From positions 1,984,001 through 2,048,000 of the forward strand of contig NC_089434.1 of assembly GCF_026210795.1 (NCBI RefSeq): a DNA stretch of 64,000 bases. Direction: 5' to 3'. Positions 46,762-49,436 of this stretch are shown piece by piece (positions within the stretch are counted from its first letter, which is position 1; every line of letters starts with the position of its first letter). Source of the stretch: Rhizophagus irregularis (Eukaryota). The position numbers were made by a program, and so were the translations under genes. Under the pieces are notes generated by a model, which searched no databases, was not told where the DNA came from, and saw only the letters and a program-made list of their open reading frames with translations.

Positions 46762-49436
46762 ATGAAAGGGAGAGATGCAATAGAAAATTCAACAGACTTT
46801 GTATCAGGTGCCGTTTCAATGGCTAATAGTGCAGCTTCTATAGGAGGCACAAGTGGAACAACAAGACAAGTATTAGGAGTTGTAGGATCAGTAGGAGATG
46901 CTATAAAACCATTTGTACCTTTAATAGCGACAGTAACAATAGTTATAAGTGAATGTATAAAAATATATGAAGATGCGCAGTACAATAAAAAAATTTGCAA
47001 TTCTCTGATGGATAGAGTTGAAACTGCTGATTGGGCTATAAGAACTTTAAAAAGGCGTAAACAAGAAAATGAAAGTAAATTTCGAGATTCAGAATATTAT
47101 AAAGCATTTTTACGTTTCGTTGATGTTATGAAAAAAATTAGATCTTTCATTAAGGATGTATCACAGATTCAAGGTTTCAAAAAATATGTTAAAGCTACCG
47201 CCATTAAAGATAAATTTCATCATTTAATTAAAGAATTTGAGGCTGTCATGAGCGATTTAAGTTTTACTATGGCCATTGCTAATGATGAACAAAGAAGACT
47301 TGATCAAGAAAGTCTCAACGAAGATATCGCTCAAATGAATAAGGTATTTAAAAAAAATTATTTTATTATTTTATTGTTATTTTTGAACTTTTTTTTCTCA
47401 TAATTATTATCGTTTATTTCGCCATAGTTTTTAAAAGAGATTCAAGGTGGTATTATTGAACAAAATGATACAATAAATACAGTTCTTCAAGAAGTAATTA
47501 TTATGAAAAACAAAGTGGACCAATTAAAGGACCAAAGGAGACCTGATTTACCAATATCTGAAACACTTAAAGCGACAACAATTGAACCAAAAGATATCAT
47601 GGACCCTTTAGTTGGAAAGAAAACAGATTGTCGTGGTAAAAAGGAACCCTTTATTTATAAAAAATCTTATAAAGCTATGGAAGTTGCTTGTATACCAAGA
47701 GCGATTCCTGAAGACGATTCTCCTCAAGCGAATAAAATACAAGCCCAACTAGCTATACTTGGAAAATTAAGAGATTCTCCAAATATATTGAAATTTTATG
47801 GACTTTCTCATTTAGATAATCAGATGGTGATGGTAGTAGAGTGGGCAGAATTAGGAAGCTTAAGAGAAGTATACAATACCTATGATATTGCTTGGCCATC
47901 AAAAGTAAGTAATATTTAATTATCTTTTAATTTGTTGCGAAAAACCGATATAACGAAAATAATTCTTTCAATAATAGGTTCAGATTGCACTTGATATTTG
48001 TCGTGGAATAACATTTTTGCACACTTGTTCAATTCTTCATCATGATATTCGATGTGCAAACATAATGATGACATTACGTTTGGAACCAAAAATTACGGGA
48101 TTCGAATATGCCCGCTTAACAACGTCAGCCACAACAAGCATGACAGAATTAACAGATGTTGTTCATTGGTTAGCTCCTGAAAAATTGAAACTTGCAAAAG
48201 ACCAACCATACAATACTAAATGTGAAATCTTTAGGTAAAAATGAGCAAGGCGAAATATTTTCTTTTTTTTTAATTTCGAATTTCTGATCTTTCTGAAAAT
48301 AATAATTGTTTAGCTTTGGAATGTTACTGTGGGAGCTTGCATTTGAGAAAATTCCTTATGAAAATTGGAATATGGAAAGAATCAAAGAGTGGGTATTATC
48401 TGGAAAAAGAGAGAGACTTGTATTTGGTAGAGATAAACCTGAAATTGAAGAACTTCAACAAGAATATAAACAAATCATAGTAGCGGGTAAGCATAAGAAT
48501 TTTTAATTTTTTTTTTTTTTGAACGCTTAATATTCAAATTAAATATATTAATTTTAATTACAACAACTTTTCTTCCTTTAGCTTGGCAAGATGATTCACA
48601 AATAAGAGCATCACTTCAATTTTTATTTATGGAATTAAATAAATTGGCTCAAAAATATTATGATCCAAGGAGTAATTCTCCGGCTCTTAAACCGGATAAA
48701 ACAATAGATCTTGATGGAACACTATATAAAAATGATCCAGTATCAGTAAGTGATCAGGGAGGAGAAGATTTACCAGAATTTGAAGATGATTTTAGTCTTG
48801 ATTCGATACCAGAAATTCCTACTTTAGATGATGGTATCTCAGCTCATAAAAAAAAGGAGACAACTAAAGCATGGGATATATTTTGTGAGCATACAAATTT
48901 GGGTAGTACAAAAGCAAAATATTGGAAAGGTTATTATTTATGGGAAGGTTATGCAGGTCAAAAGGATCGTAAGCAAGCTTCTACGCTATTTAAAGAAGCT
49001 GCTGATGATGGTTTAGCTGATGCTCAATTACGTTATGCTTTTAGTTTAGTTGGTAATCAAGGTTCTAAATTTGATCGAAAAGTTTTTATTGAATATTTAA
49101 CCAAAGCTGCTGAAAATCAGAATTCTACAGCACAATTCAATCTTGGAGATTTATATTTAAATGGAAAACTTGGTGTACCACAAAATGTTGAATTAGGTAA
49201 AAAATATTTAAGACTGGCAGCTTTAACCAACCAACCTAAGGCCATAGAAATTTTACAAAAATTGGGTATGAATATTTATAATGATAATAAGGTATTTATT
49301 TATATTACAACTTCGTAAAAAAAAAAAAAAAAAAAATTTCGAAATTTTATATTTTTATTGTATTTTTTTTTAATCTGTTTTATTGATTTATTTTTTGTAG
49401 GTTCCCGTACCAAATGAAAAAAATCAAAATAACTAG
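46762..49436 (+). CDS. MLKL-like protein: four-helix bundle and brace, pseudokinase, Sel1 repeats; about 744 aa
   Basis: Exons 46762-47343, 47428-47904, 47978-48234, 48314-48486, 48582-49291, 49401-49436 (GT-AG, 2235 nt, open). N-domain LIATVTIVISECIKIYEDAQYNKKICNSLMDRVE..AFLRFVDVMKKIRSFIKDV..IKDKFHHLIKEFEAVMSDL. Kinase fold with no Gly loop, VACI, HHDIRCAN, KITGFE, WLAPE, EIFSFGMLLWEL. C-terminal AKYWKG / AQLRYA / AQFNLG repeats. Confidence 0.85.

Follow-up and report, generated by a model that had tools for sequence, protein, structure and literature searches.

The window, a 64,000-nucleotide stretch of the genome of Rhizophagus irregularis, an arbuscular mycorrhizal fungus, contains an intact gene for a 744-residue protein in which a four-helix bundle, two brace helices and a pseudokinase are followed by an acidic linker and a Sel1 module. 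Both the sequence and the predicted fold give good support to its MLKL-like architecture. Sequence, fold and domain order agree; no single score is decisive. The gene is one member of a large bundle-brace-pseudokinase-Sel1 family in the Glomeromycotina. By analogy, we give slightly better than even odds (about 0.55) to the reading that the protein would be a self-inhibited, phospho-switched and membrane-targeting effector working like MLKL; killing is a prediction only.

It is poorly understood by what means a coenocytic symbiont whose cytoplasm is shared contains damage or infection, or replaces its arbuscules. We know of no stable transformation of this fungus, and testing in yeast or leaves is therefore of value; a defined MLKL-like family offers concrete candidates for it. 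The family is relevant, too, to the question of a single or a repeated origin of bundle-brace-pseudokinase killers in animals, plants and fungi.

Gene structure and expression

Splicing of the six exons gives a single open frame of 744 codons. All introns are short and of the GT..AG type, and the surroundings of the gene are AT-rich.

46762-47343, + strand: exon 1 (aa 1-194), variable N-terminal extension, four-helix bundle and brace helix 1
47428-47904, + strand: exon 2 (aa 195-353), brace helix 2 and kinase N-lobe without a Gly-rich loop
47978-48234, + strand: exon 3 (aa 354-438), catalytic loop and activation segment
48314-48486, + strand: exon 4, kinase C-lobe
48582-49291, + strand: exon 5, end of the pseudokinase, acidic linker and Sel1 module
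49401-49436, + strand: exon 6, final 11 aa and stop, in agreement with database protein P0028

The translation shows 0 differences from P0028 (Rhizophagus irregularis "kinase-like protein"), and three further 744-residue alleles have 4-5 differing positions each. RNA evidence came from two poly(A) runs, about a quarter of the reads of each, and the gene is readily expressed in both. Intron 2 is skipped by 86 and 109 reads; 23 and 29 reads at the start of exon 2 carry the last letters of exon 1, and 41 and 38 reads at the end of exon 3 carry the first letters of exon 4. Since reads thus join exons 1 and 2, skip intron 2 and join exons 3 and 4, the N-terminal domain and the kinase fold lie on the same transcript, and a mis-joined gene model is ruled out for the first three junctions. 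Two additional runs, which we can only guess to be RNA, gave contigs of 2361 and 2458 nt, as would suit a message with all introns removed. The original prediction of an intact six-exon gene with exons joined in RNA therefore holds, the joining for the first three junctions, and the motifs it quoted occur in the translation (IYEDAQ.. at residue 68, DEQRR.. at 175, VACI at 280-283 and GFE at 394-396).

The N-terminal bundle and brace

The N-terminal part contains the following elements.

46867-46971, + strand: hydrophobic, Gly-rich alpha0 and alpha1 (aa 36-70), candidate membrane-inserting element
46915-47271, + strand: four-helix bundle of MLKL type (aa 52-170) with a net charge of +7, from Pfam MLKL_N and VIA
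47284-47529, + strand: two brace helices (aa 175-198 and 212-228) across intron 1, from the predicted model and the MLKL brace alignment

The likeness of this part to the bundle and brace of MLKL, first proposed from the letters, was borne out by profile and structure comparisons. Exon 1 scores for Pfam MLKL_N (33.2 bits, cut-off 27), not for HeLo, and 44 of 50 aligned relatives match MLKL_N at E<=0.01. In a phmmer search of the PDB with P0002 (99% identical) as query, the best 10 matches are all animal MLKL, and full-length mouse MLKL (4btf) is colinear with residues 70-483 (E 8.5e-25). With a profile of the N-terminal part, MLKL accounts for the first 7 of 12 matches, weakly (E 1e-4 to 0.012).

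An AlphaFold2 model of residues 37-194 (pLDDT 88) has human MLKL 6ux8 as its best superposition in VIA (Z 12.9, rmsd 3.0, 139 residues aligned), with Z 11.6 for mouse MLKL 4btf and 10.7 for plant AtMLKL3; these scores are moderate, as a Z of less than about 13 may be no more than helical bundles give in general, and unrelated bundles lie near (HHM, Z 11.6 at rmsd 7.4; talin R13, Z 10.1). Foldseek also ranked MLKL first, yet with E above 0.001, and gave no match to this model at E<=0.001. The full-length model (pLDDT 76, pTM 0.72) has 4btf on top in Foldseek at an rmsd of 15.6, meaning that the domain orientation differs or is uncertain; the 50 matches listed by VIA for this model are only tyrosine-kinase-type domains and uninformative for the N-domain. 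Brace helix 1 aligns to 6ux8 as far as residue 150, and residues 210-228 carry heptad-like hydrophobics as judged by eye in the alignment.

Features expected to matter at a membrane recur across the family. The mean Kyte-Doolittle value over 19 residues reaches up to 1.76 in the alpha0-alpha1 segment, where 36 of 76 relatives have a 19-mer of at least 1.6, as compared to 0 of 78 in the rest of the protein. Position R85, which corresponds to human R34 by the offset of structural and profile alignments, is K or R in 77 of 78 relatives; in human MLKL, an R34E mutant abolishes necroptosis, according to parts of PMC10603135. Further conserved basic residues (K76 in 69, K77 in 61, R98 in 72, R99 in 60 and K100 in 60 of 78) lie in the alpha1-alpha2 and alpha2-alpha3 regions, the human counterparts of which are tied to lipid and inositol-phosphate binding in passages of 10.1101/2021.05.03.442385. 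The positions of human R29/R30 are non-basic in the fungal protein (N80/S81). Net charge is positive for the bundle in 70 of 78 relatives and negative for the kinase-Sel1 linker in 72 of them, a pairing that would suit masking.

The pseudokinase

Three motifs mark the kinase fold.

47683-47694, + strand: VACI, with Ile for the beta-3 Lys, aligned to VTIK of mouse MLKL
48038-48046, + strand: HHD (aa 374-376), catalytic Asp kept
48098-48106, + strand: GFE replacing DFG (aa 394-396); the family norm is NF followed by K, E, N or D

Judged by sequence, the fold lacks the Gly loop, the beta-3 Lys, the alphaC Glu and the DFG Asp, and it retains the catalytic Asp, a point that the original prediction did not include. 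A missing Gly loop, Ile at beta-3 and GFE for DFG had all been read correctly in the original prediction. Two sets of relatives were compared: 150 kinase domains located after a bundle, with strain alleles counted, and 89 single-module proteins of 600-820 aa, from which 12 strain alleles were dropped. Because Asp is absent from the DFG position in 150 of 150 domains (Asn in 122, Lys in 15, Gly in 8), the family is apparently catalytically impaired. That the protein is instead an active, if atypical, kinase whose helical N-domain is unrelated and resembles MLKL by chance would fit the retention of the catalytic-loop Asp in 79 and Asn in 78 of the 89 relatives and the ease with which helical bundles match. 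We consider this highly improbable, given the universal loss of the DFG Asp, the absence here of the beta-3 Lys and alphaC Glu, and the first rank of MLKL in sequence searches and, independently, in fold searches.

The GFE motif occurs in 2 of the 89 relatives and in 11 stored proteins, namely 9 of the protein's own 90% cluster, R. clarus P0003 and Funneliformis mosseae P0027; NFE stands at this place in two other relatives from Funneliformis. In a FastTree phylogeny of 78 family domains and 12 kinases of arbuscular mycorrhizal (AM) fungi, the GFE pair is nested in NF-bearing clades. GFE as a mark of shared ancestry with MLKL is ruled out by this rarity and nesting, and on the sequences compared it is best described as a late, convergent change, as the original caution about convergence had allowed. 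The beta-3 position is Lys in 69 and Ile in 9 of the 89 relatives, and Ile is ruled out as a family trait by Lys in 111 of the 150 domains; on the tree, the change from Lys to Ile or Val appears derived, in the protein's own clade and one other. This derived loss, and the confinement of GFE to the protein's own orthologue group, would also be in line with a decoy or brake paralogue that dampens the family by hetero-oligomerising or by trapping an activating kinase. Such a role is unlikely: the bundle residues match the family consensus, and without the Lys the threshold for activation might just as well be lower.

In the activation loop, position 405 is S or T in 67 of 78 relatives and is a candidate phosphosite only. 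The residues (T402/S403) that align to the TS pair of the human activation loop, the phosphosites of human MLKL, are S or T in only 19 and 12 of 78.

A large family in the Glomeromycotina

A full-length search gave 249 family proteins among 7997 scored candidates. Among the 120 listed, 117 carry an organism name, all from genera that we take to belong to the Glomeromycotina (Rhizophagus, Glomus, Funneliformis, Diversispora, Acaulospora, Gigaspora, Entrophospora, Geosiphon and Ambispora), and 3 are unnamed. A search with the N-domain gave 498 representatives at 50% identity, 348 of them beyond the matches listed, and ten of the ten divergent representatives looked up are from Glomeromycotina. 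Among the look-alikes in the ESM Atlas are clusters of chordate MLKL and clusters of Basidiomycota kinases, in one of which 23% of the members carry MLKL_N; this indicates that similar fusions are not confined to Glomeromycotina.

A kinase-like segment lies upstream of the bundle in 22 of 269 stored bundle-containing proteins. In ten of them it has both HxD and D[LF]G (P0004, P0024, P0056, P0057, P0060, P0063, P0064, P0091, P0152 and P0231), and several have related linkers with no Met between the parts; the named ones are from Diversispora epigaea, D. eburnea and R. clarus. These models may be one-chain activator-executioners or merged gene models. If real, they would have a candidate activator within the chain itself. 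As a separate observation, some proteins carry tandem bundle copies, some of these without any kinase (P0001, P0005, P0006, P0164 and P0166), and Diversispora gene names suggest tandem clusters.

The family has a brief precedent. A 2022 paper (PMC8778642) mentions, in its passages on the subject, homologues of the MLKL family (TCDB 1.A.105) with Sel1 as exclusive to Glomeromycotina, and automatic Pfam labels exist. Its assignment is by uncurated blastp at 1e-10, so that generic kinase-Sel1 proteins may be counted; one table row gives counts of 121-275 in three columns, apparently R. irregularis strains, although the columns look shifted by one. These matches very likely include the present family. 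The passages concerned give BLAST matches, with no analysis of bundle, brace or motifs, and a structural or functional study of the family was not found in the open-access PMC and bioRxiv literature.

The Sel1 module and the acidic linker

Both C-terminal elements lie within exon 5.

48662-48817, + strand: acidic disordered linker
48818-49273, + strand: Sel1 module

About three Sel1 repeats had been proposed. One repeat passes singly, the family total is 35.2 bits against the Pfam PF08238 cut-off of 30.7, and the predicted model has about three full Sel1 helical pairs plus caps. The PDB search also matches Sel1 proteins. The role suggested for the module fared differently. A sensor in the sense of a variable, diversified receptor is not supported, as no other part of the protein is as well conserved as the Sel1 module (mean pairwise identity 0.49, against 0.47 for the kinase and 0.43 for the bundle). 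Because of this conservation, the module would be more like a fixed partner dock or an internal cap. A predicted complex of the Sel1 module with the bundle-brace-pseudokinase part scored 0.00 without an alignment being used and is not evidence either way.

The conservation of the Sel1 module also suits a non-lytic scaffold for signalling or trafficking, in which the bundle would bind membranes or partners without rupture, and pseudokinase and Sel1 module would organise partners drawn from the enlarged set of kinase-Sel1 proteins in these fungi. Steady expression of the gene and low variation among strains point the same way, as does the separability of plant MLKL resistance from cell death described in parts of 10.1101/681015. 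We regard the scaffold as possible and as the less favoured reading, since the hydrophobic N-terminal segment and the basic bundle surface are found family-wide and the full bundle-brace-pseudokinase order is kept, with the plain four-part form (bundle, brace, kinase, Sel1) in 98 of the first 151 stored proteins.

Relation to animal, plant and other fungal proteins

With animal MLKL (4btf, 6ux8; PF22215) the fungal protein shares a bundle, two brace helices and a pseudokinase in the same order and at the same spacing, a Y-x-K-K-x-C-x-x-L-x-x-R-V pattern across alpha1-alpha2, and the lack of a Gly loop and a DFG Asp. In contrast to animal MLKL, it has about 50 extra N-terminal residues with the hydrophobic helix alpha0, ends in the acidic linker and Sel1 module, and belongs to a large family rather than being encoded by one gene. 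It keeps the catalytic Asp, whereas animal MLKL shows HRN/HGK in the alignment, and it lacks the beta-3 Lys that animal MLKL keeps, as given in passages of PMC7305131. The family thus does not match the degeneration pattern of animal MLKL (Lys kept, HRD Asp lost, GFE ancestral): the protein has the architecture that defines MLKL, not the motif pattern of the animal orthologues.

Kinase scores from the single sequence are 73-84 bits for MLKL, 72 for BRAF and 52-72 for AM-fungal kinases, a lead of about 10 bits for MLKL; with the family profile they are 118-121 for MLKL, up to 126.5 for BRAF and 114-129 for 16 AM-fungal kinase domains. By the family profile, RAF and other kinases appear as close to the kinase part as MLKL is. 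In our judgement, the bundle-pseudokinase fusion is probably independent of that in animal MLKL. We hold it rather unlikely that the family is an ancient, expanded necroptosis-type arsenal sharing an ancestor with animal MLKL, which would kill or wall off portions of the septum-poor mycelium under the control of a built-in Sel1 cap, a fused kinase in some lineages being the equivalent of the RIPK3-MLKL pair.

Plant MLKLs (AtMLKL3, 6ka4; the wheat MLKL-type helper) likewise combine a HeLo-type bundle, a brace and a pseudokinase; to our knowledge, they have no Sel1 tail. Plant and animal MLKL are judged convergent by the authors of 10.1101/681015 in the parts concerned, and the alpha1 helix of the wheat helper is needed to kill, according to passages of 10.64898/2026.08.07.743466. 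Fungal HeLo, HELL and Goodbye domains and basidiomycete MLKL-like domains belong to the same bundle superfamily, and the basidiomycete proteins, too, have an extra N-terminal helix, as described in parts of PMC9815663. Studied fungal HeLo-type domains are found on NLRs or amyloid motifs, whereas the present chain has no NOD domain; Pfam scans of the chain gave no NACHT or NB-ARC. Fusions of HELL with kinases or pseudokinases in fungi are mentioned, with a call for further work, in a passage of PMC12881547, while PMC10197012, in the parts concerned, covers only HeLo-type effectors.

Proposed mode of action

The steps of the preferred reading, an MLKL-like effector, are inferred by analogy to animal and plant MLKL; the parts alone are in evidence. 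At rest, the basic bundle would be masked by the brace, and perhaps by the acidic linker and a Sel1 cap. The pseudokinase would change either through phosphorylation of the activation loop, possibly at the conserved S/T of position 405, or when a partner binds the Sel1 module. A partner kinase would act as the switch; an intact kinase or NLR adjoining the gene was not seen within the window. The brace would then form a coiled-coil oligomer, and the hydrophobic alpha0-alpha1 segment and basic loops would engage the membrane. Membrane engagement might lead to ion flux and to local death, or to part of a hypha being walled off. Cell death or the sealing of compartments would be a plausible outcome. 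Against the effector reading stand the ready expression of the gene, its conservation among strains (4-5 differences in 744 positions), the failure to see an intact kinase or NLR beside it, the moderate structural scores, the non-basic residues at the R29/R30 positions, the poorly kept TS pair and the separability seen in plants.

Neighbouring genes

An intronless ORF of 439 aa (43309-44628, + strand) lies 2.1 kb upstream of the MLKL-like gene. It has no Pfam family and matches the insecticidal protein IPD113_Cow (8d2j) over residues 5-392 (E 4.4e-19), which makes it a second candidate membrane-active gene. Downstream (49919-52523, + strand) follows a DEAD-box RNA helicase gene with a DEAD-like DEADQ motif and an RGG-rich tail, as seen by eye, which is probably unrelated to the MLKL-like gene. 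Other genes of the window, identified by eye, are presumably an F-box/LRR-like gene (21231-22790, - strand), an AAA-ATPase-like gene in two frames (30589-32560, + strand) and a Myb-repeat gene (59967-60467, + strand). The gene at 14456-17992 (+ strand) encodes a kinase C-lobe with DFG and then a very long Sel1 array, a common kinase-Sel1 type of AM fungi. The MLKL-like protein resembles it in the order of kinase fold and Sel1 repeats and differs in the loss of DFG and in its short array; the Sel1 parts are 26-36% identical, over short stretches only.
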